Source: Acidobacteria bacterium 13_1_40CM_65_14 (GTDB lineage: Bacteria; Acidobacteriota; Vicinamibacteria; Vicinamibacterales; CAVVIG01). From it: DNA of 64,000 nucleotides. The notes under the pieces are model-generated. The model ran no database searches, had not been told where the DNA came from, and saw only the letters and a program-made list of their open reading frames with translations. The position numbers were made by a program, and so were the translations under genes. Below, piece by piece: positions 15,797-31,020 of the stretch; position 1 is the stretch's first letter; every line of letters starts with the position of its first letter. The DNA lies in contig MNEX01000136.1 of NCBI GenBank assembly GCA_001917905.1, positions 10,711 through 74,710 of the forward strand, given 5' to 3'.

Positions 15797-16293
15797 ACGT
15801 CGTCATCGGGATCGATGGCGATGTACGGCTGCGACGCGCGTTTGACGACAATCGTGAGGCCGAAGGCGACGAGCACCGCCGCCGCCGCGAGGCCGACGTA
15901 GATGCCGCTGCCGACGATCGCGTGGGCGTCCTGGACGGCTGACGCCGGCACGCCGTCGGCAATCGCGACCGCCTGCGCCCACGTCCGCGCGCCCTGCTCG
16001 GCCGATCGCGGCACGATGCGCCACGCGAGAAAAGTGATGCCGAGTGAAAAGAGGCCGATGACCAGCAGCGGGTGCCGCGAGTTCTTCCGCGTGATCATGC
16101 TCAGCGTCGCGAGCACGGCGGCCAGTGCGCCCAGGCCCGCCAGCCACAGCGCCCAGACGTCGGGCACGCCGCGCCGCGAATACTCGCCGATGATGACCCA
16201 GGGCAGGAATGCGCTCGTCGTCAACGCGACGCCCGCGGCAAGCGGAACGAGATAGCCCCGCATGCCGGGACGGAACATGCCTCTAAACCGCAT
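15793..16293 (-). CDS. Small membrane protein, unknown function
   Basis: 166 aa, 4-5 hydrophobic helices. 4-nt overlap with the downstream gene. Confidence 0.55.
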   Translation of the reverse strand: MRFRGMFRPGMRGYLVPLAAGVALTTSAFLPWVIIGEYSRRGVPDVWALWLAGLGALAAVLATLSMITRKNSRHPLLVIGLFSLGITFLAWRIVPRSAEQGARTWAQAVAIADGVPASAVQDAHAIVGSGIYVGLAAAAVLVAFGLTIVVKRASQPYIAIDPDDDV

Positions 16294-16466
16294 TCGCCCG
16301 AGTCTAGCATGCAGAACGAAGCACCCTGAGCTGACGATAGCGCTATCATGAACTTGGGAGCGTTCTGATGCGACGGATCAAGCTGACTGAAGATGTTCGT
16401 GATTTTCGCAGGGTTACCGGCAGCTGTTGAGAGTATGGAAACGGCAACGCTTCAAACGCAGATAGG

Positions 16467-16670
16467 CTATTGCACGTCTTTCCATTCTTCGTACCACGCC
16501 ATCTGGATCGCTTCGAGCTTCGGCTCGTTCGACGTCTTCGGATCGTCGTCGAAGTCGTCGAGCGCGATCACTTTCTCGCGCAGATCGGTGAAGCGGAGGG
16601 TCAGCGGATCGACGCCGGGAAATTTTTCCACGAGTGCAATGCCGATGTCTTCCGCGTCGGTCCACTTCAC
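16467..16670 (-). CDS. iscX: Fe-S assembly protein IscX
   Basis: MKWTDAEDIGIALVEKFPGVDPLTLRFTDL...DDFDDDPKTSNEPKLEAIQMAW closely parallels E. coli IscX/YfhJ. Confidence 0.88.
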   Translation of the reverse strand: MKWTDAEDIGIALVEKFPGVDPLTLRFTDLREKVIALDDFDDDPKTSNEPKLEAIQMAWYEEWKDVQ

Positions 16671-17077
16671 GGCGTGACCTCCTGGGCTTTGCGCTCCTTC
16701 TTGTCCGATTTCCCGAGCTGGATGCCGCCGCCTTCCTGGACGTAGTTCCGCGTGTACATCGGCAGCTCACAGACGACGTCACCTGTGATGACGGCCTGGC
16801 AGCCGAGCCGCGACTGCGGCGTCAGATCCCATGCGGTGTCGAGGCGATCTGCCTCGTCGTCCTGCATCTCGCTGAGGTTCTGCGCGCCCTCGCGGATGAT
16901 GACGTGACAGGTCGTGCACGCGCAGCTGCCGCCGCAGGCGTGCTCGAGCGGGACATGGAGGTTTTTGGCGACGTCGAGAAACGACTCCGGCTTGCCGTGG
17001 TGTGAGTACGGCAGCTGGCCGGTTTCGAACTCGACCGTCGTCGGTTCGCCGTCGATGATGAAAGTGACTTTGGGCAT
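16667..17077 (-). CDS. fdx: ISC-type [2Fe-2S] ferredoxin
   Basis: MPKVTFIIDG ... HACGGSCACTTCHVII ... SRLGCQ. Confidence 0.9.
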   Translation of the reverse strand: MPKVTFIIDGEPTTVEFETGQLPYSHHGKPESFLDVAKNLHVPLEHACGGSCACTTCHVIIREGAQNLSEMQDDEADRLDTAWDLTPQSRLGCQAVITGDVVCELPMYTRNYVQEGGGIQLGKSDKKERKAQEVTP

Positions 17078-17145
17078 ATTCTCTCGCTCGCCCTGAGCGC
17101 TCATCCTTCGACATGCTCAGGATGAGCGTCGAAGGGCTTCGCGCG

Positions 17146-18966
17146 CTACATTTCGTTGACGTTCTTGCCGGACAGCGCTGCGTGGACCGAGCGGTTCATC
17201 ATGACTTCGGCCAGATGCTGTGTCACGTCGTTCAGCGCATGGGTCCACTTCTGAATCGTCTCGCGGTCGTTTGAGTTCAGCACCATCTTCAGCCCGGCGA
17301 GAACCGATTCGATTTTCTGGCGCTCGCCCGGCGCGAGATCCGTCTTGTCGATTTCCGAGAAATCGGGCGAGCGGAGGGACTTCTCGGTCGCGGCCATCAC
17401 GCTCTCGGCCTCGTTGCGCGCCTCGATCAACAGGCGCGCGGCGAAATCGGCCTCGGCGTGCTCGAAGGAGTCGACGAGCATGCGCTCGACTTCCTCGTCG
17501 GTCAGTCCGTACGACGGCTTCACTTCGATCGTCTGCTCGACGTCGGTCCGCTCTTCGCGCGCGGTGACGCTGAGGATGCCGTTCGCGTCGATCTGAAACT
17601 GCACCTGCACGCGCGGCAGGCCGGCCGGCATCGGCGGGATGCCGCGCAGCTTGAAGCGTGCGAGCGATCGATTGTCGGCCACGAGCTCGCGCTCCCCTTG
17701 CAGCACGTGAATGTCGACCGCCGTCTGATTGTCGACCGCCGTCGTGAACATCTCGCTCCCGGTCGCCGGGATCGTCGAGTTGCGCAGGATGATCTTCGAC
17801 ATCACGCCGCCCATCGTCTCGATGCCGAGCGACAGCGGCGTCACGTCGAGCAGCAGCATGTCGCGGTTGCCGGTGATGAGGATGTCGGCCTGCACGGCGG
17901 CGCCGAGCGCGACCACCTCGTCGGGATTCAACTCGCTGTGCGGCGTCTTCCCGAACAGTTCTTCGACCTTGCGGCGCACGAGCGGAATCCGCGTCGAGCC
18001 GCCGACGAGGACCACTTCGTCGATCTGTGACGGCTGAAGTCCGGCGTCGGCGAGCGCCTGGCGGCACGGCTCGAGCGTACGATCGACGATCGGCTTGATG
18101 ATCGCCTCGAATTCGGCGCGCGTGAGACGCTTGCCGTTCAACGTCGTCTCGTCACGCTCGGAGAGATCCACCTTCGCTTGGATGACCGCCTTGCGGATCT
18201 CCTGAACGGCTTCCGAGGTCCGGCTAGAGCCGGACGCGACATCAGAAAGAACACGATCCATCAGCAGGACGTCGATGTCGTCGCCGCCCAGATGCGTGTC
18301 GCCGTTGGTCGACAACACCTGGAACACGCCGTCCTCGACACGGAGAATCGAAATGTCGAACGTCCCGCCGCCGAGGTCGTACACCGCGATGATGCCGGTG
18401 TGCCGTTTGTCGAGGCCGTATGCGAGCGACGCCGCGGTCGGTTCGTTGATGATGCGCAGAACTTCGAGGCCCGCGATCCGTCCCGCGTCGCGCGTGGCCG
18501 TTCTCTGCGCGTCGTTGAAATAGGCCGGGACAGTGATGACAGCGCGATCGACCTCGTTGTCCACCTCGCGGTGTTCCGCGAAGTGCTCCTCCGCGCGGCG
18601 CTTCAGCTCGCGAAGGATGAATGCGGAGATCTCGGGCGGCGTGAACTCCCGATCGCCGAGGCCGATGCGGACGACGCCCCCCGCCTCGCCGCTCACGCCG
18701 AACGGGAAATGTTCGGCTTCGTTCTGCACGTCCTCGCGGCCCTTGCCCATGAATCGCTTCACGGAGTATGCGGTCCGCTGCGCGTCGATCAACAGCCGCC
18801 GCTGGGCCTCGCGTCCGACGTGGACGGCGCCGTTCTCGGCGACCGAGACGACGGACGGCACGAGGCCGTCGCCGCTCTTGTCGCGGATGACGATCGGCAC
18901 GCCGTCCTTCACGTAGGCGACGAGCGAATTCGTGGTACCGAGATCGATGCCGACGACTTTGCTCAT
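17146..18966 (-). CDS. hscA: Fe-S cluster chaperone HscA (Hsp70 family)
   Basis: MSKVVGIDLGTTNSLVA ... VITVPAYFNDAQR ... DLGGGTFD ... LVGGSTRIP. Sits in the isc operon. Confidence 0.95.
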   Translation of the reverse strand: MSKVVGIDLGTTNSLVAYVKDGVPIVIRDKSGDGLVPSVVSVAENGAVHVGREAQRRLLIDAQRTAYSVKRFMGKGREDVQNEAEHFPFGVSGEAGGVVRIGLGDREFTPPEISAFILRELKRRAEEHFAEHREVDNEVDRAVITVPAYFNDAQRTATRDAGRIAGLEVLRIINEPTAASLAYGLDKRHTGIIAVYDLGGGTFDISILRVEDGVFQVLSTNGDTHLGGDDIDVLLMDRVLSDVASGSSRTSEAVQEIRKAVIQAKVDLSERDETTLNGKRLTRAEFEAIIKPIVDRTLEPCRQALADAGLQPSQIDEVVLVGGSTRIPLVRRKVEELFGKTPHSELNPDEVVALGAAVQADILITGNRDMLLLDVTPLSLGIETMGGVMSKIILRNSTIPATGSEMFTTAVDNQTAVDIHVLQGERELVADNRSLARFKLRGIPPMPAGLPRVQVQFQIDANGILSVTAREERTDVEQTIEVKPSYGLTDEEVERMLVDSFEHAEADFAARLLIEARNEAESVMAATEKSLRSPDFSEIDKTDLAPGERQKIESVLAGLKMVLNSNDRETIQKWTHALNDVTQHLAEVMMNRSVHAALSGKNVNEM

Positions 18967-18977
18967 ACGACGAAGCG

Positions 18978-19060
18978 CTCCACCACAGAGGACACGGGGG
19001 ACACGGCGTGGCAAACCTGTTTGGTGAGCAGGTTTGAACCTCCGCGTCCTCCGTGGTAGC
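18978..19060. repeat. Intercistronic hairpin repeat (GAGGACACG-type arms)
   Basis: ctccaccacagaggacacgggggacacgg ... cctccgcgtcctccgtggtagc. Between hscB and hscA. Confidence 0.8.
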
Positions 19061-19066
19061 TAGTTC

Positions 19067-19693
19067 TCACAGCGAGAGCTCCCGTTCAATTCCCGCCAAC
19101 AGATTCGCGATGTAGTTCCGCTCGAGAAATCGCTCGCGGAGCGACTGGAGAATCGCCCGGCGCTCCTCGTCCGGCGCGCCGCGATCGAGGGCGGCGTCCC
19201 ACCGTGTCGAGAGCTCCTGCAACTCCGCTTCGTGATCGGCGCGCTTGGCGTCAATCGGCAGACGGGCGCGTTCGAGGCGACCCTTCAACTGGTCGGCTGG
19301 TGCGCCGCCGGCGCGCATCTCGCGAACCTCGTCGAGCTCTTCGTTCAACGCGAACACTTCCTCGAGCAGCGCAGGCGGGACTTTGTTTACTCCGGGGGCC
19401 CCTGCCCCCCGGTCACGCTTCGCGGGGGCCCCTTCGCCCCGCTCCGCTGCGCCTTCTTCGAGCGTCAACAAATACTCGAGGCGCCGAATCGGGTCGCGAA
19501 GCGTGCGATACGCGTCGTTCAAATACGACGATTGTTCCAGGCTCGCGCGCCGCTCGGCCGCCGGTGCGTTGTAGAAGTAGTCGGGATGAAACTGCCGGCT
19601 GAGCGCGCGATACCGTTGCTCGAGATCGGCCATGTCGAGGTTCAGCTTGCGGGGCAGGCCGAGGAAGCTGAAAAAGTCCGCGCTACGCGCCAA
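19067..19693 (-). CDS. hscB: Co-chaperone HscB (J-domain), with repeat-derived insert
   Basis: FFSFLGLPRKLNLDMADLEQRYRALSRQFHPD (J domain, HPD). Operon position between iscA and hscA. Confidence 0.85.
   Translation of the reverse strand: MARSADFFSFLGLPRKLNLDMADLEQRYRALSRQFHPDYFYNAPAAERRASLEQSSYLNDAYRTLRDPIRRLEYLLTLEEGAAERGEGAPAKRDRGAGAPGVNKVPPALLEEVFALNEELDEVREMRAGGAPADQLKGRLERARLPIDAKRADHEAELQELSTRWDAALDRGAPDEERRAILQSLRERFLERNYIANLLAGIERELSL
19390..19450. repeat. GC-rich palindromic (REP-like) element inside hscB
   Basis: ccgggggcccctgccccccgg ... cgcgggggccccttcgccccgc. Encodes AAERGEGAPAKRDRGAGAPG in frame. Confidence 0.7.
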
Positions 19694-20009
19694 AGGAACT
19701 GCCGCAGCCGCACGTCGACTTGGCGTTCGGGTTGTTGAACACGAACCCCTTGCTGATCATGTTCGTGTCGTAGTCGAGCACCGTGCCGTTGAGATACAGC
19801 AGGCTCTTCTTGTCGACGTAGATCTTCGCGCCGTCGGGCCCCTCGAAGATTTCGTCGCCAAGACGCGGCTGCTTCTCCCACGAGAACGTGTAGCTCAACC
19901 CCGAGCACCCGCCGCCCTTCACGCCGACGCGCAGTCCGCCCTCGTCGATGCCCTGCTTGGCCATCAACGTGCGGATCTTGCGGGCTGCGGTTTCGCTGAT
20001 CTGAATCAT
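19683..20009 (-). CDS. iscA: Fe-S scaffold/carrier IscA (HesB family)
   Basis: LRVGVKGGGCSGLSY ... FNNPNAKSTCGCGSSF. Confidence 0.9.
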   Translation of the reverse strand: MIQISETAARKIRTLMAKQGIDEGGLRVGVKGGGCSGLSYTFSWEKQPRLGDEIFEGPDGAKIYVDKKSLLYLNGTVLDYDTNMISKGFVFNNPNAKSTCGCGSSFGA

Positions 20010-20075
20010 TTTTTACTTTGCGGTGGGGCCCCACCCCCACCGCCTGTCGCCGCTCGCCTTGTCGGCTCGCGGCGG
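20010..20075. repeat. GC-rich palindromic element immediately upstream of the iscA start
   Basis: Gene strand: GCGAGCCGACAAGGCGAGCGGCGACAGGCGGTGGGGGTGGGGCCCCACCGCAAAGTAAAAAATG. Confidence 0.8.
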
Positions 20076-20107
20076 TATATCCCAACGACTTTCTGCTTTC
20101 ACAAACG

Positions 20108-20533
20108 TTATGCAGTGGGTTGCGGCTGCTTCTGTTCAGCCCTGTTCGCGGCCGCCTGCTTTTTCTTGTAGTCGGCGATGGCGGCTTTGATCGCGTCCTC
20201 CGCCAGCACCGAGCAGTGAATCTTGACCGGCGGCAGGCTCAGCTCGGCGACGATCTCGGTGTTCTTGATCGCGAGCGCCTGATCGACGGTCTTGCCCTTG
20301 AGCCATTCGGTCGCCAGGCTCGAGCTCGCAATCGCCGAGCCGCAGCCGAACGTCTTGAACTTCGCATCATCGATGACGCCCGTGTCCGGGTTCACCTTGA
20401 CCTGCAGTTTCATGACGTCGCCGCACTCCGGCGCGCCGACGAGGCCCGTGCCGACGTTGACGTCGTCTTTTGGCAGCGAGCCGACATTGCGCGGGTTCTC
20501 GTAGTGATCGATGACCTTGCTCGAATACGCCAT
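20108..20533 (-). CDS. iscU: Fe-S cluster scaffold IscU
   Basis: MAYSSKVIDHYENPRNVGSL ... GAPECGDVMKL ... FKTFGCGSAIASSS ... LPPVKIHCS. Confidence 0.95.
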   Translation of the reverse strand: MAYSSKVIDHYENPRNVGSLPKDDVNVGTGLVGAPECGDVMKLQVKVNPDTGVIDDAKFKTFGCGSAIASSSLATEWLKGKTVDQALAIKNTEIVAELSLPPVKIHCSVLAEDAIKAAIADYKKKQAAANRAEQKQPQPTA

Positions 20534-20537
20534 GTTC

Positions 20538-21764
20538 TTAATGTCCTTCTGTTTGCCACTGCATCGTGGAGAGGTCGACGCCTTCTTTCGCCAGCTCATA
20601 GAGGGGCGACATTTCCCGCAGCCGCGTCACGACATGCGTCAGTTTGTCCGCGACGTAATCCACTTCCTCTTTCGTCGTCCACCGGCCCAGTCCGAAGCGG
20701 ATGGACGAGTGCGCGAGGTCGTCCCCCGCACCGAGCGCCTTGAGCACGTACGACGGTTCGAGGCTCGCCGACGTGCAGGCCGAACCCGACGAGACCGCGA
20801 CGTCGTTGATCCCCATCAGCAGCGATTCGCCCTCGACGTAGGCGAAGCTGATGTTCAAGTTGTGCGGCAGCCGGTGTTCCACCGAACCGTTGACGTAAAT
20901 CTCGTCGAGGTTCTTGTGAAGCTTGTCGTTGAGGTAATCGCGCAGCTTCCGCAGACGCTCACTCTCGCTCGCCATCTCCTGCCTGCACAGCTCCGCGGCC
21001 TTGCCAAAGCCGACGATGCCGGTGACGTTCAGCGTGCCTGAACGCATGCCGCGCTCGTGGCCGCCGCCATCGATGATCGGGGCGAGCAGCACGCGCGGAT
21101 TTCTGCGCCGGACGTACAGCGCGCCGACGCCCTTCGGTCCGTATATCTTGTGCGCGCTCAGCGAGGCCATGTCGACCTTCAGATCGTTGACGTTGAACGG
21201 CACCTTGCCAACCATCTGAACCGCGTCCGTGTGGAAGAGGATCCCCTTCTCTTTCGCGATCGCGCCAATCTCCGCAATCGGCTGGAGGACGCCGATCTCG
21301 TTGTTGGCCGCCATGATCGTGATGAGGATCGTCTTGTCGCTGATCGCCGCCTTCAGCTCGTCGAGGCTGATCCGGCCGTCCTTCTGCACCGGCAGATAGG
21401 TGACGCGGTAGCCCTCCTTCTCGAGGCGCTTGCACGTGTCGATCACCGCCTTGTGCTCGGTGACGGCCGTGATGATGTGATTGCCCTTCTCGCGATACAT
21501 CTCGGCGACGCCTTTGATCGCGAGGTTGTCCGACTCGGTCGCGCCGCTCGTGAAGACGATTTCCTTGGCGTTCGCGCCGATCAGATCCGCCACCTGCTTG
21601 CGCGCCTTCTCGACGGCTTCTTCCGCTTCCCACCCGAACGGATGATTGCGGCTGGCGGCATTGCCGAAATGCTCGGTGAAGTAGGGAATCATCGCCTCGA
21701 CGACGCGCGGATCGGCCGGCGTGGTCGCGTGATAGTCCATGTAGATCGGGAGCTTGATAGCCAT
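20538..21764 (-). CDS. iscS: Cysteine desulfurase IscS
   Basis: [16 protein letters not shown] ... [10 protein letters not shown] ... [15 protein letters not shown] ... SSGSACTS. Confidence 0.95.
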
Positions 21765-21769
21765 AGCGT

Positions 21770-22231
21770 TCAAATATGCGTGTGAAGCACCGCGGGTTGC
21801 GCGGTCGCCGGCGGCGGGGAATCCGCCGCAAGCTCCGCGATCGTGCATTCTCCGAGCGCGGTCAGAATCCGTTCACGCACGCGCCAGAGCGGGTCGCGTA
21901 CGTTGCATTTCGCGAACTGTTCGCAAAGTCCGTCCTCGGTCGAACAGGCCGTGACGGTCACCGGTCCATCGATCGCTTGAATGACGTCGGCAACCGAAAT
22001 CTGCGACGGAATTCGCGCCAGTTGATACCCGCCACGGGTACCCTGATGCGAAGCGAGCAGTCCGCGCCGAACCAGTCGCTGAAGCACCTTTGCCATGAGC
22101 TCTATCGGAATGTCGTACAGTTCCGCGATTTCCCGGGCTGACGATGACGCCTGGGAGCCCCGGTCGCCTCGCAGCGCCAGGTGTTTCATCGCGATCAAGG
22201 CGTAATCCGCCTTTTTTGACAGCCTCAACAT
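21770..22231 (-). CDS. iscR: Rrf2-family regulator (IscR-like)
   Basis: [19 protein letters not shown] ... [10 protein letters not shown]. Cys residues [14 protein letters not shown]. First gene of the isc operon. Confidence 0.85.
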
Positions 22232-22299
22232 GCCGGTCTTTCACGTATGCGATAGGAAACGTTCCGGCCGCGCGATCCGTACACGGCCTCGTGCTGACC

Positions 22300-22365
22300 C
22301 GGCTTTTTCTTGCTCGCGGGGCCCCGCTCGATCGGCGTCCTCGCGCCTCGCGCGGGCCGCAGGCG
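22300..22365. repeat. GC-rich palindromic element upstream of iscR
   Basis: Gene strand: GCGAGGCGCGAGGACGCCGATCGAGCGGGGCCCCGCGAGCAAGAAAAAGCC. Confidence 0.6.
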
Positions 22366-22413
22366 CATATCCGACCGCTATGGTCTTACTTTAACACACT
22401 GCAGCGGCGCGGT

Positions 22414-23877
22414 TTAGTATTTCGGCTGGGTCGGATCGACCTTGTCTATCCAATCCAGGACGCCGCCCTTCAGGTTCAGAACCTTCTTGAACCCGACCGA
22501 CCTCAGGAAATCCGCAGCTTTCGCGCTCCGCCCGCCCGTCTTGCAGTGCACGACGATCTCATCGTCAGGGTTGAGCTCGTTGACGCGCTTCGGCACGTCT
22601 CCGAGCGGGATGAGCTCGGACCCGGGGATGCGATTGATCTGGTACTCGTTGGGCTCCCGCACGTCGACGATCTTCAGCTTGTCGCCACGGTCGAGCCGTT
22701 GCTTGAGCTCGACCGACGTGATCTCAGTGGCACTGTTCACCGTGATCGGCTCCGGTGCGGCCGGCCTGACGCCGCAGAACTGTTCGTAGTCGATGAGCTG
22801 CGTCACGGTCGGGTGCGTGCCACACACCGGGCAGTCGGGATCCTTGCGCAGCTTCAGTTCGCGGAATCTCATCCGCAGCGCGTCGACGATCAGAAAACGT
22901 CCGATCAGCGGTTCGCCGACGCCGAGAATCAGCTTGATCGTTTCCGTCGCCTGAATCACGCCGATGATGCCCGGCAGCACGCCGAGCACGCCGCCTTCGG
23001 CGCAGCTCGGGACGAGTCCAGGCGGCGGCGGCTCGGGATACAAGCAGCGATAGCACGGACCGTCCTTGGTCGCGAATACCGACGCTTGGCCTTCGAAACG
23101 GAAGATGCTGCCGTAGGCGTTCGGCTTGCCGGTCAGCACGCTCGCGTCGTTGACCAGATAGCGTGTCGGAAAATTGTCCGTGCCGTCGACGATCACGTCG
23201 TACGGCTCGAACAGCTTGAGCGCGTTCTCTGACGAAATCGCGGTCTCGTGCGCGACGACGTCGACGTTCGGATTGAGCGCTTGCAGCCGATCTTTCGCCG
23301 ACGCGAGCTTCGATCGACCGACGTCGGGCGTTCCGTGGAGGATTTGCCGCTGCAAGTTGCTGAAGTCGACGACGTCGAAGTCCACGATGCCGAGCGTGCC
23401 CACGCCGGCGGCGGTGAGATACATGGCGACCGGCGATCCAAGTCCGCCTGCACCGATACACAGCACCTTGGCCGCCTTCAGCTTCCGCTGACCCTCGACG
23501 CCCACCTCCGGCATGATGAGATGCCGCGAGTAGCGTTTGATCTCGTCGTTTGTCAGTTCCGGTAAGGTCCGGCTGACACCGGACACCACATCCGTGACGC
23601 TTGGCGCGCCGCCCGCGACCGACGGGATGATGCTGACCGTGTCGTCCGCGGTCACCGGCGTCTGTTCCTTCTGCAAGTACCGGATGTCTTCGTCGTTGAC
23701 GTACACGTTGACGAAGCTGCGCAGCTTGCCCTGCTCGTTGTAGAGATGCGGCTTGAGACCGGCGTGCCGGCGCGTCAGATCGGCCAGCAGCTCGCCGACG
23801 GTCGCGCCCGACGCGTCAACCGCGTCCTGCTTGTCGGTGTACGGTCTGAGCGGAGTCGGAATGAGAATTTTCACCAT
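22414..23877 (-). CDS. Fusion: ThiS/MoaD/CysO-like ubiquitin-fold domain + MoeB/MoeZ-type E1 adenylyltransferase + rhodanese
   Basis: N-terminal about 90 aa, MVKILIPTPL...VSIIPSVAGG (beta-grasp sulfur carrier ending GG). Then RYSRHLIMPEVGVEGQRKL..VLCIGAGGLGSP, CxxC pairs (CYRC, CPVC), and C-terminal rhodanese VVHCKTGGRS. Confidence 0.85.
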   Translation of the reverse strand: MVKILIPTPLRPYTDKQDAVDASGATVGELLADLTRRHAGLKPHLYNEQGKLRSFVNVYVNDEDIRYLQKEQTPVTADDTVSIIPSVAGGAPSVTDVVSGVSRTLPELTNDEIKRYSRHLIMPEVGVEGQRKLKAAKVLCIGAGGLGSPVAMYLTAAGVGTLGIVDFDVVDFSNLQRQILHGTPDVGRSKLASAKDRLQALNPNVDVVAHETAISSENALKLFEPYDVIVDGTDNFPTRYLVNDASVLTGKPNAYGSIFRFEGQASVFATKDGPCYRCLYPEPPPPGLVPSCAEGGVLGVLPGIIGVIQATETIKLILGVGEPLIGRFLIVDALRMRFRELKLRKDPDCPVCGTHPTVTQLIDYEQFCGVRPAAPEPITVNSATEITSVELKQRLDRGDKLKIVDVREPNEYQINRIPGSELIPLGDVPKRVNELNPDDEIVVHCKTGGRSAKAADFLRSVGFKKVLNLKGGVLDWIDKVDPTQPKY

Positions 23878-24292
23878 GATCGAGACTGCCCTCTTCGAAG
23901 CTCGAACGATCGTTTTTGAGATACCACACCGTCATGTCCGCGGCGGCGCCGTTCATCACCGACACGATGATGTAGGCGAAGGTCGGCCACGCGTGATCGA
24001 GATCGTACTGCGACGGCCGCGATGGATGATCCGGGTGCGAGTGATAGAACCCAAGGAGCTCGCCGCCCATTTCGGTCGCCCGCCGCTCGGCCTGCCGGTA
24101 ATCGGACGGTCGCACCAGAAACCGGCGCCGCGGTCCTTCCTCGGTTGTGTTCGGGAGCGCGACGACCGTCGTCACGATATCGCCTTTGCCGACGAGCGCC
24201 CCGCAGCACTCGTGCGGATACGTCTCCTGACCGTGCGCGCGAATCGCGTGCTCCACGTCGCCTGTGATGATCAATCGCCGATCAGCTGCCAT
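23816..24292 (-). CDS. JAMM/MPN+ metalloprotease (Mec-like)
   Basis: YPHECCGALVG ... GFYHSHPDHPSRPSQYD (ExnHxHx7Sx2D JAMM motif). Confidence 0.85.
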   Translation of the reverse strand: MAADRRLIITGDVEHAIRAHGQETYPHECCGALVGKGDIVTTVVALPNTTEEGPRRRFLVRPSDYRQAERRATEMGGELLGFYHSHPDHPSRPSQYDLDHAWPTFAYIIVSVMNGAAADMTVWYLKNDRSSFEEGSLDHGENSHSDSAQTVHRQAGRG

Positions 24293-25235
24293 GTTGCTCC
24301 GCGGTCCAGAAGCTTTCTGTCAGGTACTTCTCGGCGCCGTCGGGAAACACGGTCACGACGATGCCGCTGTCGAGACGCTTGGCGACATCGAGCGTCGCGG
24401 CAATCGCGGCGCCCGACGAGATCCCCGCAAGCAGACCCTCTTCCCGGGCGAGACGGCGGACCATGCGATACGCGCGCTCGGTGTCGATCCGCAAATCCTC
24501 GTCGGCGAGCGTCGGATCGTAGATGCCCGGGACGATCGCCGACTCCATGTGCTTGAGACCTTCGAGTCCATGGAACGGCGAGTCGGGCTGAAACGAGATC
24601 AGCTTGATCGACGGATTGAACTTCCGCAGCCGGCGTCCGATCCCGATAAACGTGCCGCTCGTTCCCAGGCCGGCGACGAAGTGCGTCATGCGGCCGCTCG
24701 TCTGCTCGATGATTTCCGGTGCGGTCGTATCGTAATGCGCCTGCCAGTTCGCGTCGTTGTTGTACTGATCGGGATAGAAGTAGCGGTCCGGATCCGACGC
24801 GTACAGCCGCCGCGCTTCGCGAATCGCGCCGTCGCTGCCTTCGAGTGGACTCGTGAGCACGAGCTCGGCGCCAAGCGCGCGCAGAATCAGCTTGCGTTCG
24901 GGGCTCGCGTTCTCCGGCACGCACAACTTCACCTTGTAGCCGCGCGCCGCGCCGACCATCGCGTACGCGATGCCGGTGTTCCCCGAGGTCGCATCGAGAA
25001 TCGTGCGGTCAGGCGTCAGCGTGCCCTTCGCCTCGCCGTCGAGGATCATCCGCGCCGCGGCGCGGTCTTTCACCGATCCGCCAGGGTTTTGCCATTCCGC
25101 TTTCGCGTAGATCTCGACGCCGGGCGTCTCCCGCTCGAACTGGTGCAGCCGCACGAGCGGCGTGCGCCCGATCATGTCGAGCACGGACGAGCCGGGCGCT
25201 CGGTCCAGCACGGAAGACGCGTCTGATGAGGACAT
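24282..25235 (-). CDS. cysM: Cysteine synthase, CysM/CysO-dependent type
   Basis: AEWQNPGGSVKDRAA ... DATSGNTGIAYA ... GLGTSGT. PLP beta-replacement family. Confidence 0.9.
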   Translation of the reverse strand: MSSSDASSVLDRAPGSSVLDMIGRTPLVRLHQFERETPGVEIYAKAEWQNPGGSVKDRAAARMILDGEAKGTLTPDRTILDATSGNTGIAYAMVGAARGYKVKLCVPENASPERKLILRALGAELVLTSPLEGSDGAIREARRLYASDPDRYFYPDQYNNDANWQAHYDTTAPEIIEQTSGRMTHFVAGLGTSGTFIGIGRRLRKFNPSIKLISFQPDSPFHGLEGLKHMESAIVPGIYDPTLADEDLRIDTERAYRMVRRLAREEGLLAGISSGAAIAATLDVAKRLDSGIVVTVFPDGAEKYLTESFWTAEQHGS

Positions 25236-25291
25236 GGGATATATACGACCGACTGAGTCGGTGATTGTATCAACTATACTCCGGCCCGTCG

Positions 25292-25906
25292 ATGACCCAC
25301 CTCGGCGGTTGGTTGTTCCGCCACCGCACGATCATTCCGCTTCCGCTCGCGATCGCCGTGCTGCTGCTGCGGATCGGCGAGGCGCCGCCTTCCAAATGGC
25401 TCATCGCAAGCGGGATCGGCCTCACGTTGACGGGCGAAGCGATCCGGTTGTGGGCCGTTCACCACATCGGCGCGATCTCGCGGACGCGAAGCGATCGCCT
25501 CGGCCCGCTCATCGCCGCCGGGCCGTTCGCAGTGGTGCGCAATCCGCTCTATCTGGGGAACATCGCACTGTGGGCAGGGTTTGCGATGGCGGCCCGGCTC
25601 CTCTGGCTGGTGCCGGTCATCGTCGTGCTGCTCGCGGTGGAATATCACGCGATCGTGCGCTGGGAGGAGCAGGTGCTCGAAGCGCGCTACGGTGACGAGT
25701 ATCGTGCGTACGCCGCGCGCGTGCCGCGATGGTGGCCCACGTTCAACCGCGGAGCGCGCAGAACTCGCAGAGAAAACGTGTTCTCTGCGAACTCAGCGAA
25801 CTCCGCGGTTGCTTTCTCCTGGCGCGAGACGCTGTTCAGCGAGCGCGGCACGCTCATCGCCATCGCAGCTGGATTTTTCCTGCTCTGGCTCAAACTTAGA
25901 ACTTAG
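25292..25906 (+). CDS. Isoprenylcysteine carboxyl / phospholipid methyltransferase-family membrane protein
   Basis: GPFAVVRNPLYLGNIALWAGFA ... EEQVLEARYGDEYRAYAARVPRWWP. The C-terminal tail runs through two repeats. ATG at 25292 preferred over TTG at 25265. Confidence 0.75.
   Translation: MTHLGGWLFRHRTIIPLPLAIAVLLLRIGEAPPSKWLIASGIGLTLTGEAIRLWAVHHIGAISRTRSDRLGPLIAAGPFAVVRNPLYLGNIALWAGFAMAARLLWLVPVIVVLLAVEYHAIVRWEEQVLEARYGDEYRAYAARVPRWWPTFNRGARRTRRENVFSANSANSAVAFSWRETLFSERGTLIAIAAGFFLLWLKLRT
25749..25807. repeat. Hairpin repeat (CGCAGAG-type) inside the 3' part of the methyltransferase ORF
   Basis: gcggagcgcgcagaactcgcagagaaaacgtgttctctgcgaactcagcgaactccgc. Confidence 0.7.
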
Positions 25907-25982
25907 AACTTAGAACCTAGAACTTCGAACTCAGAACCCAACCGAGCACAGTTCTAAGTTCTGAGTTTTGAGTTCTTAGTTC
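25893..25982. repeat. Hairpin repeat (AGAACTT-type heptamer arms) between convergent genes
   Basis: acttagaacttagaacttagaacctagaacttcgaactcagaac ... gttctaagttctgagttttgagttcttagttc. Both flanking stop codons lie inside the arms. Confidence 0.85.
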
Positions 25983-26610
25983 CGCGCGGCGGAGTTTCGC
26001 GGAGCGTCTGCCAGAGATACCACGACGCGACCGATCGATACGGACGCCACGCTTCGCCCATTTTCAGGATGCGCTTCGGATCGGGACGCTTGCGGAGCCG
26101 ATAGAGGCGCTGAATCGCATTGACGATGCCGAGGTCGCCCGCCGGCAGGACGTCCGGGCGATGAAGCCGGAACATCAGAAACATTTCGGCCGTCCATCGG
26201 CCGAAGCCTTTGACCGACGTCAGCCGCTCGATGACCAGGTCGTCAGGCAATGCATCGAGCTCGTCGAGATTCAGCCGGCCATCGGCGATGCGCGCGGACA
26301 GATCGCGCAGATACCCGATCTTCTGTCCGCTCAAACCGACTCCGCGTAGCGTCGGGTCATCCAGCCCATCAATCGCCGCCGCGCTCGTGATTTGGTTGTC
26401 CGGAAACAACGCCGCGAACCTTCCGAAGATCGTCGCGGCCGCTTTGGTTGACAGCTGTTGACTGACGATCGCTCCGATGAGCGCGGTGAGATGGTCTTTG
26501 CGCTGGCGCTCCGCCATGCGACACGCCCCGATGCGCTTGATCGCTTCGGCAAGAATCGGATCGCGCCGCATCAAGAGACGCCGCGCGCGCTGGTAATCCG
26601 CCTCTGTCAT
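25954..26610 (-). CDS. DNA-3-methyladenine glycosylase II-like (HhH-GPD, AlkA family)
   Basis: IVSQQLSTKAAATIFGRF ... LTSVKGFGRWTAEMFLMF..RPDVLPAGDLG. Confidence 0.85.
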   Translation of the reverse strand: MTEADYQRARRLLMRRDPILAEAIKRIGACRMAERQRKDHLTALIGAIVSQQLSTKAAATIFGRFAALFPDNQITSAAAIDGLDDPTLRGVGLSGQKIGYLRDLSARIADGRLNLDELDALPDDLVIERLTSVKGFGRWTAEMFLMFRLHRPDVLPAGDLGIVNAIQRLYRLRKRPDPKRILKMGEAWRPYRSVASWYLWQTLRETPPRGTKNSKLRT

Positions 26611-27302
26611 TTCATCGACGCCGTCAAGGTCACGCGTGCGTGGATTTCGATGAGTCCGGGCTCGACCGGCGTCTGCGCCGGGCTCTCGGCCGTGCGGGCC
26701 ATCGTCATCATCGGCCTCGGTGGCATGATGCCGCTATCGCGCGAATCCTCGATGCGCAACACGCGATCGATGGCACGGCCCGCGCCCGATGCCGCGGCTT
26801 CGGCGCGTGCACGGGCGTCGGCGACGGCGAGTCGCAGCGCTTCGCGTTCGACGCTGTCGCGATCCTGCAGATCGAACCGGATGCCGCTGACCGACGTGGC
26901 GCCCGACTGTACGACCGCGTCGAGCATCTCACCGGTCCGCGCGATGTCGTCCACGCGGACTTCGATGCCGTTGCGCGCCACGAACTCGCGCAGCACGCGC
27001 CGGCCCTGCACGAAGTCGAACTCCTGCTGGAGGTCGTAGCCGGTCGTACGGATGGCGTCTTTCGCGATGCGCGCCTGCGTCAGCCGCTGCTGGACCGCGG
27101 TCATCGCCTCCGCGTTCAAGCGCTGCGCGTCACGCGGACTCTTCGAGCGCGTCTCGACGCTCACGGTGACGAACGCGCGGTCGGGCGCACGACGGACCGT
27201 CGCCTCGCCAACCGTCACGACGACCGGACCCTGTGGCTGCGCCGGCTCTTGAGCGGCGACGGCGCAGGCCAGGGCGATCCAAACGACTGCTATGAGCCGC
27301 AT
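26607..27302 (-). CDS. SIMPL/DUF541 periplasmic protein
   Basis: MRLIAVVWIALACAVAAQ signal, then VTVSVETRSKSPRDAQRLNAEAM ... GIRFDL.D......AL..AV.DARARAE. Confidence 0.8.
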   Translation of the reverse strand: MRLIAVVWIALACAVAAQEPAQPQGPVVVTVGEATVRRAPDRAFVTVSVETRSKSPRDAQRLNAEAMTAVQQRLTQARIAKDAIRTTGYDLQQEFDFVQGRRVLREFVARNGIEVRVDDIARTGEMLDAVVQSGATSVSGIRFDLQDRDSVEREALRLAVADARARAEAAASGAGRAIDRVLRIEDSRDSGIMPPRPMMTMARTAESPAQTPVEPGLIEIHARVTLTASMK

Positions 27303-28081
27303 ACGATCCGGAACCCGATGCTGTGCGCGTAGGTGTCCGGCGGAACCTTGTGACGATACGCACATCGAAGCATCGACACGTCGTCGTTCACCCAGGAACC
27401 GCCACGCACGATGCGCATGCTGCCGGTCGCGAGGCCCTGAGGGTCGCGCATCTCGCCGAGCCCATAGTAGTCCGCGCTGTACCAGTCGGACACCCATTCC
27501 CAGACATTGCCCGACATGTCGTAAAGGCCGTATGCATTGGGCGAATAGGTGCCGGTCGGACGCGTGCCGCGCTCCCGTTTGAACGACGGGTCCGTCAGGT
27601 AGTTGCACCGCGACGAATCGATGTCGTCGCCCCACGGATAGCGCTGACCTTCGAGGCCGCCGCGCGCCGCTTTTTCCCATTCCGCTTCGGTCGGCAGGCG
27701 CACGACGCGTCCCAGCGAATCGGACAGCCACCGACAGTAGGCCTGCGCATCGTCGTAGCGCGTGAGCACCACGGGATGACTGCCGTGACCGGCCGGCGGA
27801 TTGCCCTCCTCCCAGACGTACGGCGCCGCGAGCTCGCGGAACATCGAATCGCGGCCGCCGAGCGTCACGAGCGGCAGGCCGCGGATCGACGGCGCCGGAT
27901 AGCCGGTCTCGCGGATGAATCGCGCGTACTCGTCCTGCGTGACCGCGAAGCGGCTGATGAAGAATTCGCTGACGAAGATGCGATGAACGGGACGCTCGTC
28001 CTGTTCGAAGTCCGGCGCGCCCATCAGAAAGTCGCCGGCGGGAATCCGCGCGAGGTTCGGGGTTGTCGCGAGCGTCATCAT
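27290..28081 (-). CDS. Formylglycine-generating-enzyme family protein (SUMF1/FGE-sulfatase domain)
   Basis: IPAGDFLMGAP...ERPVHRIFVSEFFISRFAVT ... RLPTEAEWEKAARGG ... GNVWEWVSDWY ... RIVRGGSW. The start is uncertain (28081 versus 28159). Confidence 0.8.
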   Translation of the reverse strand: MMTLATTPNLARIPAGDFLMGAPDFEQDERPVHRIFVSEFFISRFAVTQDEYARFIRETGYPAPSIRGLPLVTLGGRDSMFRELAAPYVWEEGNPPAGHGSHPVVLTRYDDAQAYCRWLSDSLGRVVRLPTEAEWEKAARGGLEGQRYPWGDDIDSSRCNYLTDPSFKRERGTRPTGTYSPNAYGLYDMSGNVWEWVSDWYSADYYGLGEMRDPQGLATGSMRIVRGGSWVNDDVSMLRCAYRHKVPPDTYAHSIGFRIVCGS

Positions 28082-28157
28082 GCCTTCGGGCGCGGCCGTG
28101 GTGATCGCCCGTCTGTCTGCACTTGTGTCCAAAGCGGTGAGTATATAGTCTGCGCTC

Positions 28158-29342
28158 ATGAAACTCGAACAGTTTGCGATGGAACGCATGCAATCCACCT
28201 ATGAAAACCAGGTGGAGTTCAACCTGTCGGAGAGCGGCGTGCAGCCGCTGCGCCTCGCCGAGCTCGTCGACGATGAGGCTGCACGCAACGCGCTGATGAC
28301 TGAAGCGCTCCGTTATACACAGTCGAACGGCACTGTGCCCTTGAGGTCGGATATCGCCGCGCTGTATTCGGGGGCGGACGCGGATCGCGTGCAGGTCACC
28401 AACGGCGGATCGGAAGCCAACTACATCACGACGTGGCACCTCGTCGAGCCGGGCGATGAAGTCGTGCTGATGGTGCCGAACTACATGCAGACGTGGGGTC
28501 TGGCGCGCGCGTTCGGCGGCATCGTGAGAGAGTGGCCGCTCGTCCCCGCCGAAGCCGCACGCGGCGAAGGCGGGCGCTGGCGGGTCGACATTGATGCGCT
28601 CGCTCGTCTGGTGTCGTCGCGAACGAAGCTGATCATCATCTGCAATCCGAACAACCCGACCGGCGCACGCATCGACGCGGCGGATCTCGACGGCATCGCC
28701 GCGATTGCGTCACGGCACGGCACGTGGATTCTCTCGGACGAGATCTATCGCGGAGCGGAGCTCGACGGCCGCGAGACGCCGTCGATGTGGGGCCGCTCGG
28801 ATCGCGTCATCGTCACGAGCGGTCTGTCGAAAGCGTACGGACTGCCGGGACTCCGGATTGGCTGGATCGTCGGACCGCCCGCGACCGTCGCGTCGCTGTG
28901 GTCGTATCACGATTACACGACCATTTCGCCAGGCGCGCTCAGCGATTTCCTGGCGCGGCGCGCGCTCGCGCCCTCGCACCGCGCCCGCATCCTCGCGCGG
29001 ACGCGGAAGATTCTGAACGAGAACTTTCCCGTCATCGCGCAGTGGCTTGACGCGCACGGCGGCCTCTTCAGCTACGCGCCGCCCGACGCGGGCGCCATCG
29101 TGTACGTCCGCTACCACCATCCCATCAACTCGACGGATCTCGTCACCAGGCTGCGCGAGCAGAAAAGCGTGCTGATCGTCCCGGGCGATCACTTCGGCAT
29201 GGACGGCTATCTGCGAATCGGCTTCGGCGACGATGTCGAGTACCTGCGGAAGGGATTGAATCGGCTGGATGAGCTGTTGACGGAGCTGGTCCGGCTGAGG
29301 CCGGACACCACCGGAACCACGGCGCCAACCGTTGCCCGGTGA
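28158..29342 (+). CDS. Class I/II PLP-dependent aminotransferase
   Basis: 394 aa. NPNNPTG ... SGLSKAYGLPGLRIGW (PLP-lysine motif). Confidence 0.85.
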   Translation: MKLEQFAMERMQSTYENQVEFNLSESGVQPLRLAELVDDEAARNALMTEALRYTQSNGTVPLRSDIAALYSGADADRVQVTNGGSEANYITTWHLVEPGDEVVLMVPNYMQTWGLARAFGGIVREWPLVPAEAARGEGGRWRVDIDALARLVSSRTKLIIICNPNNPTGARIDAADLDGIAAIASRHGTWILSDEIYRGAELDGRETPSMWGRSDRVIVTSGLSKAYGLPGLRIGWIVGPPATVASLWSYHDYTTISPGALSDFLARRALAPSHRARILARTRKILNENFPVIAQWLDAHGGLFSYAPPDAGAIVYVRYHHPINSTDLVTRLREQKSVLIVPGDHFGMDGYLRIGFGDDVEYLRKGLNRLDELLTELVRLRPDTTGTTAPTVAR

Positions 29343-29460
29343 GGTTCGATCTCGTTCTCGTTTACTCGGGAGATCGCGATCGTCCAGCGCGGCGGGAACC
29401 TGACGCAGACGGCCTACGCGCTCGTCTCAGATTTAGTGGCTATTGCTAATCTGGTGGCCC

Positions 29461-29706
29461 CTACCCCCCGGCGTTCGCGCGCCAGTCGGCAATCGCGGTC
29501 ATGAGCGCCGGCTCGTCGAAACCTTTGATCGTGCGATCGCCGAATACCGTGACCGGAATCGTACGGAATCCGCGCGCGATGAGATCGCCGTACGCGCGAT
29601 CGTCCTCGTCGACGTTGTACGCCGTGAACGGCACACCTTCGCGTGAAAGCAACGCTTTCACCTGTTCGCAGCTGCGTCAGGCGCTGCCAGCGTAGACGAT
29701 AATCAT
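29461..29706 (-). CDS. Glutaredoxin-like (NrdH/YruB-type) protein with in-frame TGA at the first active-site Cys: candidate selenoprotein, or nonsense pseudogene
   Basis: ATG 29706 gives MIIVYAGSA-[TGA 29679..29677]-RSCEQVKALLSREGVPFTAYNVDED...TIPVTVFGDRTIKGFD, i.e. a U-x-x-C in place of C-x-x-C. The ORF track reports only the 66-aa part after the TGA. Confidence 0.5.
29643..29661 (-). promoter_or_regulatory. SECIS-like stem-loop downstream of the in-frame UGA
   Basis: mRNA: UGA-CGCAGCUGCGAACAG-GUGAAAGC-GUU-GCUUUCAC. Perfect 8-bp stem, 3-nt loop starting with G, loop 23 nt from the UGA. Confidence 0.4.
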
Positions 29707-29715
29707 CTGTTCATT

Positions 29716-31020
29716 ATGCCGTCACTCGATGGAATCACCGTGCTCGACCTGACGCGCGTGCTGTCGGGCCCGTACTGCGCGATGATGCTCGGCGACATGG
29801 GTGCGCGCGTCATCAAGATCGAACAGCCAGGTAAAGGCGACGACACGCGCGCGTGGGGGCCGCCGTTTCTGCACCCCAGCGCGCACAAACCGCGCGCTGG
29901 GGACCCCGGCTTCCACCCCAGCGCGCACAAACCGCGCGCTGGGGACCCCGGCTTCCACCCCAGCGCGCACAAACCGCGCGCTGGGGACCCCGGCTTGGAA
30001 GGCGAGAGCGCGTACTTCCTCAGCATCAACCGGAACAAGGAAAGCGTCACGCTCGACTTCAAGCATCCCGAGGGCCGCGCGATCCTCGATCGCCTCATCG
30101 CCAAGAGCGACGTCCTGGTCGAAAACTTCCGTCCAGGCACGCTGGCCAAGATGGGACTCGACTACGCGTCGCTGGCGCCGAAGCATCCACGGCTCGTGTA
30201 CGCGTCGGTGTCGGGCTTCGGGCAGACGGGCCCGCGCCGCACGGAGCCGGGCTATGACGCGGTGATCCAGGCGGAAGGCGGGCTGATGAGCATCACCGGC
30301 GCACCGGACGGTCCGCCGTATCGACTCGGCGTCGCGATCGCGGACATCGTGTCGGGCATGTTTGCCGCGTATGGCGTCGTCACGGCGCTCTTTGCACGCG
30401 AGCGCACCGGCCGCGGCCAGATGGTGGACGTCGCGATGCTCGACGCCGTCGCCGCGCTGCTGACGTACCAGGCCGGCAATTACTTCGCGAGCGGCAACGT
30501 GCCCGCGCGGCTCGGCAATCGCCACCCGAGCATCGTGCCGTACGAGACGTTCGCGGCCGAGGACGGCGAGTTCGTGCTCGCGGTCGGCAACGAAGACTTG
30601 TGGCGCCGCTTCTGCGAGGTGGCCGAGCTCGATCTCGGCGAGCGCTTCGCCACGAATCGTCAGCGGGTCACGCAATACGACGGGCTGCGCCCGCTGATTG
30701 CCGACGCGCTTCGGCGTCACACGCGGCAGTACTGGATCGAGCGGCTGACGGCAGCCGGCGTCCCGTGCGGATCGGTCCGCAATCTGCAAGAGGTGTTCGA
30801 CGATCCACAGCTCGGCGCGCGAGCGATGATCGCCGAGCTCGAACATGCGACGATCGGTCCACTGAAAATGCTCGGCGTGCCGGTGAAGCTGTCGGAAACG
30901 CCCGGCGCCGTGCGGACGCCGCCACCACGGCTCGGCCAACACACGGACAGCGTGCTGCAGCACGATCTCGGTTTCGACACCGACGCCATCACGCGGCTGC
31001 GCGCGCAGAAGGTTGTCTAA
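29716..31020 (+). CDS. Family III CoA-transferase (CaiB/BaiF)
   Basis: LDGITVLDLTRVLSGPYCAMMLGDMGARVIKIEQPGKGDDTRAWGPPF ... SAYFLSINRNKES ... VENFRPG ... SGFGQTGP. Confidence 0.9.
   Translation: MPSLDGITVLDLTRVLSGPYCAMMLGDMGARVIKIEQPGKGDDTRAWGPPFLHPSAHKPRAGDPGFHPSAHKPRAGDPGFHPSAHKPRAGDPGLEGESAYFLSINRNKESVTLDFKHPEGRAILDRLIAKSDVLVENFRPGTLAKMGLDYASLAPKHPRLVYASVSGFGQTGPRRTEPGYDAVIQAEGGLMSITGAPDGPPYRLGVAIADIVSGMFAAYGVVTALFARERTGRGQMVDVAMLDAVAALLTYQAGNYFASGNVPARLGNRHPSIVPYETFAAEDGEFVLAVGNEDLWRRFCEVAELDLGERFATNRQRVTQYDGLRPLIADALRRHTRQYWIERLTAAGVPCGSVRNLQEVFDDPQLGARAMIAELEHATIGPLKMLGVPVKLSETPGAVRTPPPRLGQHTDSVLQHDLGFDTDAITRLRAQKVV
29872..29997 (+). repeat. 3 x 42-bp tandem hairpin repeat, in frame within the CoA-transferase
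   Basis: caccccagcgcgcacaaaccgcgcgctggggaccccggcttc x3. Encodes HPSAHKPRAGDPGF x3. Each unit holds an 11-bp perfect stem, ccccagcgcgc/gcgcgctgggg. Confidence 0.95.

Follow-up and report, generated by a model that had tools for sequence, protein, structure and literature searches.

How does a sulfur carrier obtain the free C-terminus needed for its activation when it is encoded as the N-terminal part of its own activating enzyme? This question is raised by a single open reading frame (ORF) of 487 aa at 22414..23877 on the minus strand of a 64-kb stretch of DNA from Acidobacteria bacterium 13_1_40CM_65_14. The stretch is referred to below as the window, and all operon coordinates are window positions. 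In this ORF a beta-grasp sulfur carrier, an activating enzyme (E1) and a rhodanese domain follow one another in the order carrier::linker::E1::linker::rhodanese, and genes for a cysteine synthase and a JAMM metalloprotease precede it. A C-terminal carboxylate is needed for adenylation by MoeB/ThiF-type E1 enzymes, as established for MoaD, ThiS and CysO (PMC3227635). The locus is probably an operon for thiocarboxylate-dependent cysteine synthesis of the CysO/CysM/Mec+/MoeZ type, in which the carrier is the N-terminal domain of its own E1-rhodanese and would be freed by the adjacent JAMM protein.

A sulfur carrier joined in frame to its E1

Pfam domains were found in a single frame of the fusion ORF, with ThiS at residues 4-90, ThiF at 116-351 and Rhodanese at 390-478. 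The carrier part (residues 1-90; 23608..23877, minus strand) is of the CysO/ThiS/MoaD type and ends PSVAGG. It scored 56.1 bits against the ThiS profile (PF02597; cutoff 22.5). Its best matches in the PDB are the CysO chains 4n6e_B (E 7e-19) and 3dwg_C (E 5.5e-18), with which it aligns end to end (2-90 to 3-90 of 90 and 2-90 to 3-93 of 93, respectively), and both of these chains stop at the Gly-Gly pair (GG). The nearest characterised relatives of the carrier are thus CysO proteins, and its gene lies beside cysM and the JAMM gene, as expected for CysO. The GG that marks the end of a sulfur-carrier domain is present as G89-G90 (codons at 23613-23608, minus strand), but it is internal and not the free C-terminus of the translated product. 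The junction DNA, TCG GTC GCG GGC GGC GCG CCA AGC, encodes S-V-A-G89-G90-A-P-S with no stop and no change of frame, in agreement with an earlier note on this DNA which described a carrier ending SVAGG that runs without a stop into the E1. Since no stop follows GG, a free GG would need proteolysis.

Residue 2 of E. coli MoeB aligns with residue 106 of the fusion, and residues 91-105 (APSVTDVVSGVSRTL; 23563..23607, minus strand) are therefore an added linker. An AlphaFold2 model of the fusion has a mean predicted local distance difference test score (pLDDT) of 82.6 and three confident domains, the N-terminal carrier domain being confident with mixed strands and helices. The pLDDT is under 50 in three stretches, namely residues 87-101, 289-298 (taken here to be the E1 crossover loop) and 370-382. 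The low values at 87-101 place GG in an exposed, flexible segment, with the linker modelled as disordered, and the bond G90|A91 is predicted to be the scissile one.

The E1 adenylyltransferase domain (residues 106-369; 22771..23562, minus strand) is of the MoeB/ThiF type (Pfam ThiF, PF00899, E 2e-83). It has the GxGxxG loop and the N-terminal Arg finger, aligns with the whole of E. coli MoeB (1jw9_B) and also matches Uba4 (6yub). Among the NCBIfam models, MoeB PRK08762 was matched above its cutoff (482.5 against 449); the score for PRK07411 was below the cutoff (556.9 against 633), as was that for the UbaA equivalog (349.9 against 450). The rhodanese domain (residues 383-487; 22417..22731, minus strand; PF00581, E 1e-21) carries the active-site Cys in the loop C445-KTGG-R450.

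The fusion is the last of three successive ORFs, all on the minus strand. The gene order given in the earlier note, cysM, JAMM and then the beta-grasp::MoeB/MoeZ::rhodanese fusion, was borne out by the ORFs and the Pfam assignments. The first ORF (24282..25235, 317 aa) encodes a CysM-like cysteine synthase dependent on pyridoxal 5'-phosphate (PLP). It matches Pfam PALP (PF00291) at E 3e-70 and the subfamily model TIGR01136 (cysKM) of NCBIfam above its cutoff (348.8 against 344.15). Its best PDB matches are CysM/O-acetylserine sulfhydrylase B (OASS-B) structures 2jc3 and 2bhs; CysM of M. tuberculosis (3dki; E 1.5e-57) ranks below enterobacterial CysM chains. The second ORF (23816..24292, 158 aa) encodes a Mec+-like JAMM/MPN+ metalloprotease with a Prok-JAB domain (PF14464, E 1e-24; 87.1 bits against a cutoff of 25), the best PDB match 2kcq and the complete motif E28 ... 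H-S-H-x7-S-x2-D (HSHPDHPSRPSQYD). Overlaps of 11 nt between cysM and the JAMM gene (24282-24292) and of 62 nt between the JAMM gene and the fusion (23816-23877) follow from the ORF coordinates, exactly as had been noted before.

Conservation of the fusion and the variable end of the carrier

An open frame across two domains could arise through an error of sequencing or assembly, or through a pseudogene-like read-through. An identical protein is deposited at NCBI under the same organism name, and the three-domain architecture was found in 120 of the 120 best protein clusters (85-100% identity), which derive from independent JGI, ENA and NCBI assemblies. A stop or frameshift after GG, which the earlier note had named as the result that would undo its proposal if found on resequencing, is in effect excluded for this lineage by these clusters. 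Errors of this kind do arise in long-read data from metagenome-assembled genomes (MAGs): in the long-read MAG locus L005 (6160-6400) a frameshift lies within the carrier C-terminus (…KEQTPCRRRRHDQHHPVGRWRR…), probably an indel error and no real variant. In-frame fusion in more than 230 independent sequences, with all catalytic residues conserved, leaves the chance of an artefact practically nil, and this explanation was rejected.

The spread of the fusion was surveyed in a genome scan with one genome per GTDB species. It gave 586 relatives, and the counts below cover the best 80 loci (59-84% identity), many of which are MAGs with uncertain taxonomic labels. These labels include Vicinamibacteria, Thermoanaerobaculia, Bryobacterales, Blastocatellia and Terriglobales/Acidobacteriaceae. 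Carrier and E1 were fused in frame in 58 loci and separated by a stop in 22, and L005 from this set carries the frameshift; the ratio comes from a tblastn ranking in which the fused query gives loci in frame an advantage. To avoid this ranking, a second sample of metagenome loci was anchored on the JAMM gene alone. It contained 55 fused loci, one split locus (out of frame) and 24 contigs too short to judge, so that 55 of the 56 informative loci were fused. Among the best 150 matches to 1.84 billion representatives of 50%-identity clusters, about 12 more distant fused families were seen, and GG ends the carrier in all of them. The survey proposed in the earlier note thus finds the fused arrangement to be common. 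The fusion described there stands, but it is less out of the ordinary than the note suggests: it is dominant across Acidobacteriota, and MoaD-MoeBR fusions have already been catalogued (PMC11237513).

The pattern of conservation is centred on GG. When 18 fused proteins (41-96% identity) were aligned, V27, G89 and G90 were the only invariant positions of the carrier; R115, Y116, GAGGLG and C292 of the E1 and C445 and R450 of the rhodanese were invariant as well. The sequence PS[VI]AGG is shared by 139 of the 140 distinct junctions; the other has PAIAGG. Across the 120 close homologues 'SIIPSVAGG' is constant and is followed by 8-35 freely varying residues, after which conservation returns at 'LPELTNDEIKRYSRH'. 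The linker is hypervariable in both length and sequence, and 13-45 residues separate GG from the RYSRH motif. A module 'VRSVRLQPDR', sometimes duplicated, and a module 'EKGYGPLSTxAVAEKGPY' recur between GG and the E1 N-terminus (seen in L001, L081, L096, L104, L111, L156 and L004, L094, L105, L114, L118-L120, L136, L137, L149).

The end of the carrier in the split relatives bears on whether a free GG is ever encoded directly. In all 22 split loci the carrier has 1-25 further residues past GG. The ends found directly before the stop include GGV, GGR, GGK, GGMY, GGARK, GGARDRV, GGCVNRAG, GGLRGENIGD and GGCCPCGCCCCPR. A stop directly after GG was found in none of the 140 distinct junctions. The residue after GG (P1') is Ala in 55, Val in 39, Ser in 29, Thr in 5 and Cys in 3 of these junctions, with a few others, so that Ala, Val or Ser occupies this position in 88%. 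By analogy, these residues resemble in size the Cys of the CysO-Cys intermediate that is hydrolysed by Mec+-type JAMM proteins. As no junction ends at GG, the carrier of this acidobacterial family is always a capped precursor; judged from these sequences, the E1 fusion is the long extreme of a continuum of C-terminal caps.

The split loci look like nonsense mutations within an ancestral in-frame linker. Stop position and spacer differ among them, with 39-234 nt from GG to RYSRH, and carrier and E1 share a reading frame in 20 of the 22 (for example L006, L019, L046, L064, L072 and L078), an excess that is uncertain as the tblastn ranking favours in-frame loci and the two out-of-frame loci rank below the identity-based expectation. 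A quick, rough neighbour-joining tree of the E1 domain with Fitch parsimony placed the fused state at the root and required at least 11 changes of state.

The same loci bear on the idea that the fused beta-grasp domain is never released and serves as a structural or regulatory appendage of the E1, as in Campylobacter-type ThiF proteins, with the real carrier encoded separately elsewhere. In the part of Iyer, Burroughs and Aravind (2006) on such proteins, ThiF with a fused ubiquitin (Ub)-like domain is described as co-occurring with stand-alone ThiS, and a different role was concluded for the fused domain; moreover, 64 kb of the genome is in view here, and a second carrier could sit outside it. 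An invariant GG has no rationale in a non-carrier domain, however, and the fused domain can be aligned with true CysO from one end to the other. In addition, 22 species hold the orthologous domain as a small separate gene at the same position of the operon with no other carrier nearby. When a hidden Markov model (HMM) of the carrier was compared with the 868 window ORFs of at least 40 aa, only the fused domain was recovered (E 1e-45; next E >1), and no second carrier was found in the window. A role as appendage is therefore highly improbable.

Predicted release of the carrier and function of the operon

Release and activation of the carrier would proceed in five steps. The 487-aa precursor, observed as an ORF, would be translated. 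The adjacent JAMM protein would then hydrolyse the G90-A91 bond in the disordered linker, giving a 90-residue carrier with GG at its end and an E1-rhodanese that retains a short remnant at its N-terminus. By homology, the E1 would adenylate Gly90, and the persulfide of rhodanese Cys445 would turn the adenylate into a thiocarboxylate. CysM would add the thiocarboxylate to the aminoacrylate intermediate, and an S-to-N shift would yield carrier-GG-Cys. Finally, the same JAMM protein would cut after GG once more, giving free cysteine and a recycled carrier.

The second and the last of these steps would be alike in chemistry. Adenylation requires a free C-terminal carboxylate, and the precursor must thus be cut exactly after G90. 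In M. tuberculosis, MoeZR thiocarboxylates CysO and Mec+ hydrolyses CysO-Cys, at the peptide bond after GG, in every turnover (PMC3227635). A carrier-GG-Ala/Ser/Val precursor is a close analogue of CysO-Cys, and the JAMM protein would need no new specificity to cut it; on this analogy, maturation of the precursor probably calls for no new activity of the enzyme. As the protease would cut after GG in each cycle, whatever is encoded beyond GG would be tolerated, and loss or gain of a stop at this point would therefore be nearly neutral. Such near-neutrality could account for the universal capping, by 1-25 residues or by a whole E1, and for the repeated interconversion of fused and split forms.

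That a free GG is needed and that the fusion therefore implies proteolytic release had been argued in the earlier note, and the invariance of GG, the variable linker and the capped split orthologues support the argument. Its choice of the adjacent JAMM as candidate protease is likewise favoured by gene neighbourhood, as a JAMM gene with intact motif lies beside the carrier in essentially all informative loci. Its alternative, a mechanism in cis with no cleavage, is chemically implausible and found no support. The E-CCG and HSHPD..A..S..D elements of the JAMM protein are at least 90% conserved (69 loci).

Release might instead depend on another protease that cuts the exposed linker, or an internal start might yield the E1 as a product of its own, in which case cleavage would be of consequence to the carrier alone. 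In the AlphaFold2 model the linker is disordered and exposed, the split loci show that internal E1 starts can work, and the protease that acts on the MoaX fusion of M. tuberculosis is still unidentified (PMC4326299). Against this, an exact GG C-terminus needs a specific endopeptidase, an activity which JAMM proteins of this clade possess, and the JAMM gene lies directly upstream of the carrier gene and shares 47-65 nt with it in about 80 near relatives. A different protease would thus be the less parsimonious choice, and this pair of explanations is very unlikely. The overlap of the JAMM 3' end with the carrier 5' end measures 47 nt in 57 of the near relatives, 62 nt in 15, 50 nt in six and 65 nt in two, with the carrier always in the +1 frame; for a conserved gene overlap this is unusually long. 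Short gaps or overlaps of 8-16 nt take its place in distant acidobacteria.

The uncleaved precursor could also be zymogen-like. The carrier would then sit in, or obstruct, the E1 of the dimer to which it belongs, and cleavage by the JAMM protein would switch the pathway on with a fixed 1:1 ratio of carrier to E1. This addition to the scheme is quite unlikely. If it were true, two proteins with further fusions would be self-processing polyproteins, and the frame kept across the stop in most split loci could reflect some functional read-through. The two proteins, both distant relatives, are P0166 (619 aa), in which JAMM::carrier::E1::rhodanese form one polypeptide, and P0146 (634 aa), with the order JAMM::carrier::rhodanese::E1; in both, the protease would be fused to its own substrate. 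A third distant relative, P0127 (486 aa), has the order carrier::rhodanese::E1. GG is kept at the carrier end in all three.

The assignment of the released carrier to cysteine synthesis is favoured by the genomic context. The order cysM-JAMM-carrier/E1 is present in about 75 of the 80 loci. In at least three loci (L022:1-1467, L026:4375-5967 and L031:57-1457), and possibly in L012, L017, L045 and L055, cysM and the JAMM gene share a single ORF with no stop between them. The CysM C-terminus (...DGGEKYLSERFW...) is followed at once by the start of the JAMM protein, and some lineages of acidobacteria thus apparently have a CysM::JAMM fusion. A fused gene with 60% identity was also found in L074 (JAGVSJ010000009.1), labelled Candidatus Sysuiplasma superficiale, a name that suggests an archaeon. 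In this locus cysM lies directly upstream of the fused gene and a JAMM gene about 4.5 kb downstream. Unless it reflects a binning error, the locus fits the transfer from Acidobacteria to Archaea suggested in PMC11237513.

Several points weigh against a cysteine operon in which the JAMM protein matures the carrier. In the E1, both CxxC motifs (CYRC and CPVC) are present, whereas MoeZR is defined by NYRD in place of the first CxxC and by the lack of the second (Voss et al. 2011, PMC3227635). By this definition the E1 of the fusion is, on its motifs, of the MoeBR type despite the CysO-type operon, and in M. tuberculosis only MoeZR activated CysO (PMC3227635). The score for the NCBIfam MoeZ model PRK07878 (535) is below the cutoff of 647. 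The cysM product scored 354.8 for the cysM equivalog TIGR01138, below its cutoff of 394.2. The NCBIfam equivalog cutoffs for SAMP1 (53.4 against 60) and for desampylase (70.6 against 130) were not reached either. Presence of a JAMM protein is not specific to precursor processing, as Mec+ is needed even where CysO ends at GG. One locus, L071 (CAWCEA010000004.1), is split, its carrier ending GGAA before the stop, and neither a JAMM gene nor cysM could be detected in the 6 kb to each side of it. No other informative locus departs from the synteny. Lastly, published experiments on cleavage, thiocarboxylation or cysteine formation were found for no acidobacterial member. The literature was also searched for experiments on a carrier::E1 fusion accompanied by a JAMM protein; none came to light, and a single comparative-genomic catalogue (PMC11237513) was retrieved.

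Some of these points agree with a module that serves mainly in molybdopterin synthesis, tRNA thiolation or SAMP/TtuB-like conjugation, with the JAMM protein as maturase and deconjugase and the link to cysM secondary. MoeB models rank highest among the NCBIfam matches, both CxxC motifs occur in the E1, and the models for SAMP1, UbaA and desampylase are matched weakly, below their thresholds. The MoaD-MoeBR fusions are placed under molybdenum cofactor (MoCo) biosynthesis in PMC11237513, and M. tuberculosis MoeZR is itself dual-function (PMC3227635). The position of cysM directly upstream of the JAMM gene in most loci and its fusion to that gene in others speak against such a role, as do the best solved relatives of the carrier, which are CysO chains. 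The block conserved across loci includes neither moa nor thi genes, and no E2-like gene is present. A main role outside cysteine synthesis is therefore unlikely. One E1 might still serve several carriers, and such functions would hence tend to supplement the cysteine pathway and not to replace it. That cysM is linked to these genes throughout the phylum speaks for cysteine synthesis as the core function.

Around the operon, a sigma-70-like promoter match (TCGACG-17-TACAAT with TG) lies just upstream of cysM at 25264..25292 on the minus strand. It is weak evidence only, as the promoter scan of the operon region gave 2 sites against 0.7 expected. The genes of a complete iscR-iscS-iscU-iscA-hscB-hscA cluster (17146..22231, minus strand), recognised from their ORFs and an Rrf2 domain, start 182 nt past the fusion stop, and no terminator was found between the fusion and iscR on this strand. 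Machinery for Fe-S assembly, a consumer of cysteine, thereby adjoins a cysteine source. Linkage to iscR/iscS is confined to the loci nearest to the window (L001-L022, L052 and L066), whose labels are mostly Vicinamibacteria/Vicinamibacterales. An Rfam scan of 16000-30000 gave no match to an RNA element or riboswitch around the operon.

Relation to known sulfur-carrier systems

The locus offers a clean natural case of a ubiquitin-like carrier whose precursor would contain the very enzyme that activates it, and a tidy, testable one of obligatory precursor maturation in a bacterial carrier of this kind. It would parallel, within a plain metabolic pathway, the eukaryotic ubiquitin precursors and their maturation by JAMM and other deubiquitinases (DUBs). 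It also suggests an evolutionary rule: where a pathway has its own protease that cuts after GG in each cycle, C-terminal extensions of the carrier would be near-neutral, and capped, split and fused forms should interconvert freely, as is seen across the species compared. For annotation, acidobacterial 'MoeB' proteins of 480-500 aa would hide a carrier of the cysteine pathway, and metabolic reconstructions from genomes would miss CysO and mis-assign the operon to synthesis of the molybdenum cofactor.

The CysO-CysM-Mec+-MoeZR pathway of M. tuberculosis (PMC3227635) has the same components, namely a beta-grasp carrier with GG, a PLP-dependent cysteine synthase, a JAMM hydrolase and an E1-rhodanese, and its JAMM enzyme cuts after GG, as would that of the present operon. 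There, however, CysO is a separate protein of 93 aa that ends at GG and moeZ is unlinked, whereas the present carrier continues into the E1, which leaves GG internal. The activating enzyme differs too, MoeZR having NYRD and no second CxxC and the fusion having both motifs of the MoeBR type. Class 4c of the operons listed by Iyer, Burroughs and Aravind (2006), which combines ThiS/MoaD, E1-rhodanese, JAB and cysteine synthase and includes Solibacter usitatus, has the same gene content and comes from the same phylum, and JAB domains were predicted in that paper to free fused ThiS/MoaD moieties (PMC1779556). In the section of the paper on this class, an E1-rhodanese fusion is the only one mentioned, not a carrier-E1 fusion, and the proposal is a prediction without experiment (PMC1779556). 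MoaD-MoeB and MoaD-MoeBR fusions, and thus carrier and E1 with or without rhodanese, have since been catalogued, the archaeal and acidobacterial proteins being more than 55% identical (PMC11237513, mSystems 2024). Unlike the present account, that catalogue is framed around MoCo; it connects the fusions with neither cysM nor JAMM, and whether this one has to be cleaved is not taken up there.

Other carriers also bear residues or a partner after GG and require proteolysis before adenylation, and wherever the protease is known it is a JAMM protein. HcyD reportedly trims HcyS-Ala. QbsD trims QbsE (GG-CF), CxnF is proposed to trim CxnE (GG+10 aa) (PMC5925218), and DRJAMM cleaves MoaD-MoaE (PMC8832034); MoaX, for its part, must be cleaved after Gly82 (PMC4326299). 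The partner in MoaD-MoaE is the downstream sulfur acceptor, and in QbsE and CxnE it is a short peptide, whereas here it is the activating E1 itself. A further difference from these systems is that, in the fusion operon, the same JAMM protein would also be needed in each catalytic cycle.

The Ub-like::ThiF fusions of Campylobacter and its relatives, as described in the corresponding part of PMC1779556, likewise carry a beta-grasp domain ahead of an E1-like Rossmann domain. That domain is distinct from ThiS, it occurs in operons with stand-alone ThiS, and a non-carrier role was inferred for it there; the domain studied here, in contrast, is an orthologue of CysO whose GG is invariant and which has no second carrier in its vicinity. 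The Uba4/MOCS3-Urm1 system shares an E1 with a C-terminal rhodanese, and Uba4 (6yub) is the best PDB match of the E1 part. It differs in being eukaryotic, in having a separate Urm1 that ends at GG, in lacking maturation by JAMM and in serving tRNA thiolation and urmylation. The parts of the arrangement have therefore been described already: the operon type in 2006, the MoaD-MoeBR fusions, acidobacterial ones included, in 2024, and the trimming of capped or fused carriers by JAMM proteins. Their combination at this locus is a variation on known systems and not a new kind of system.

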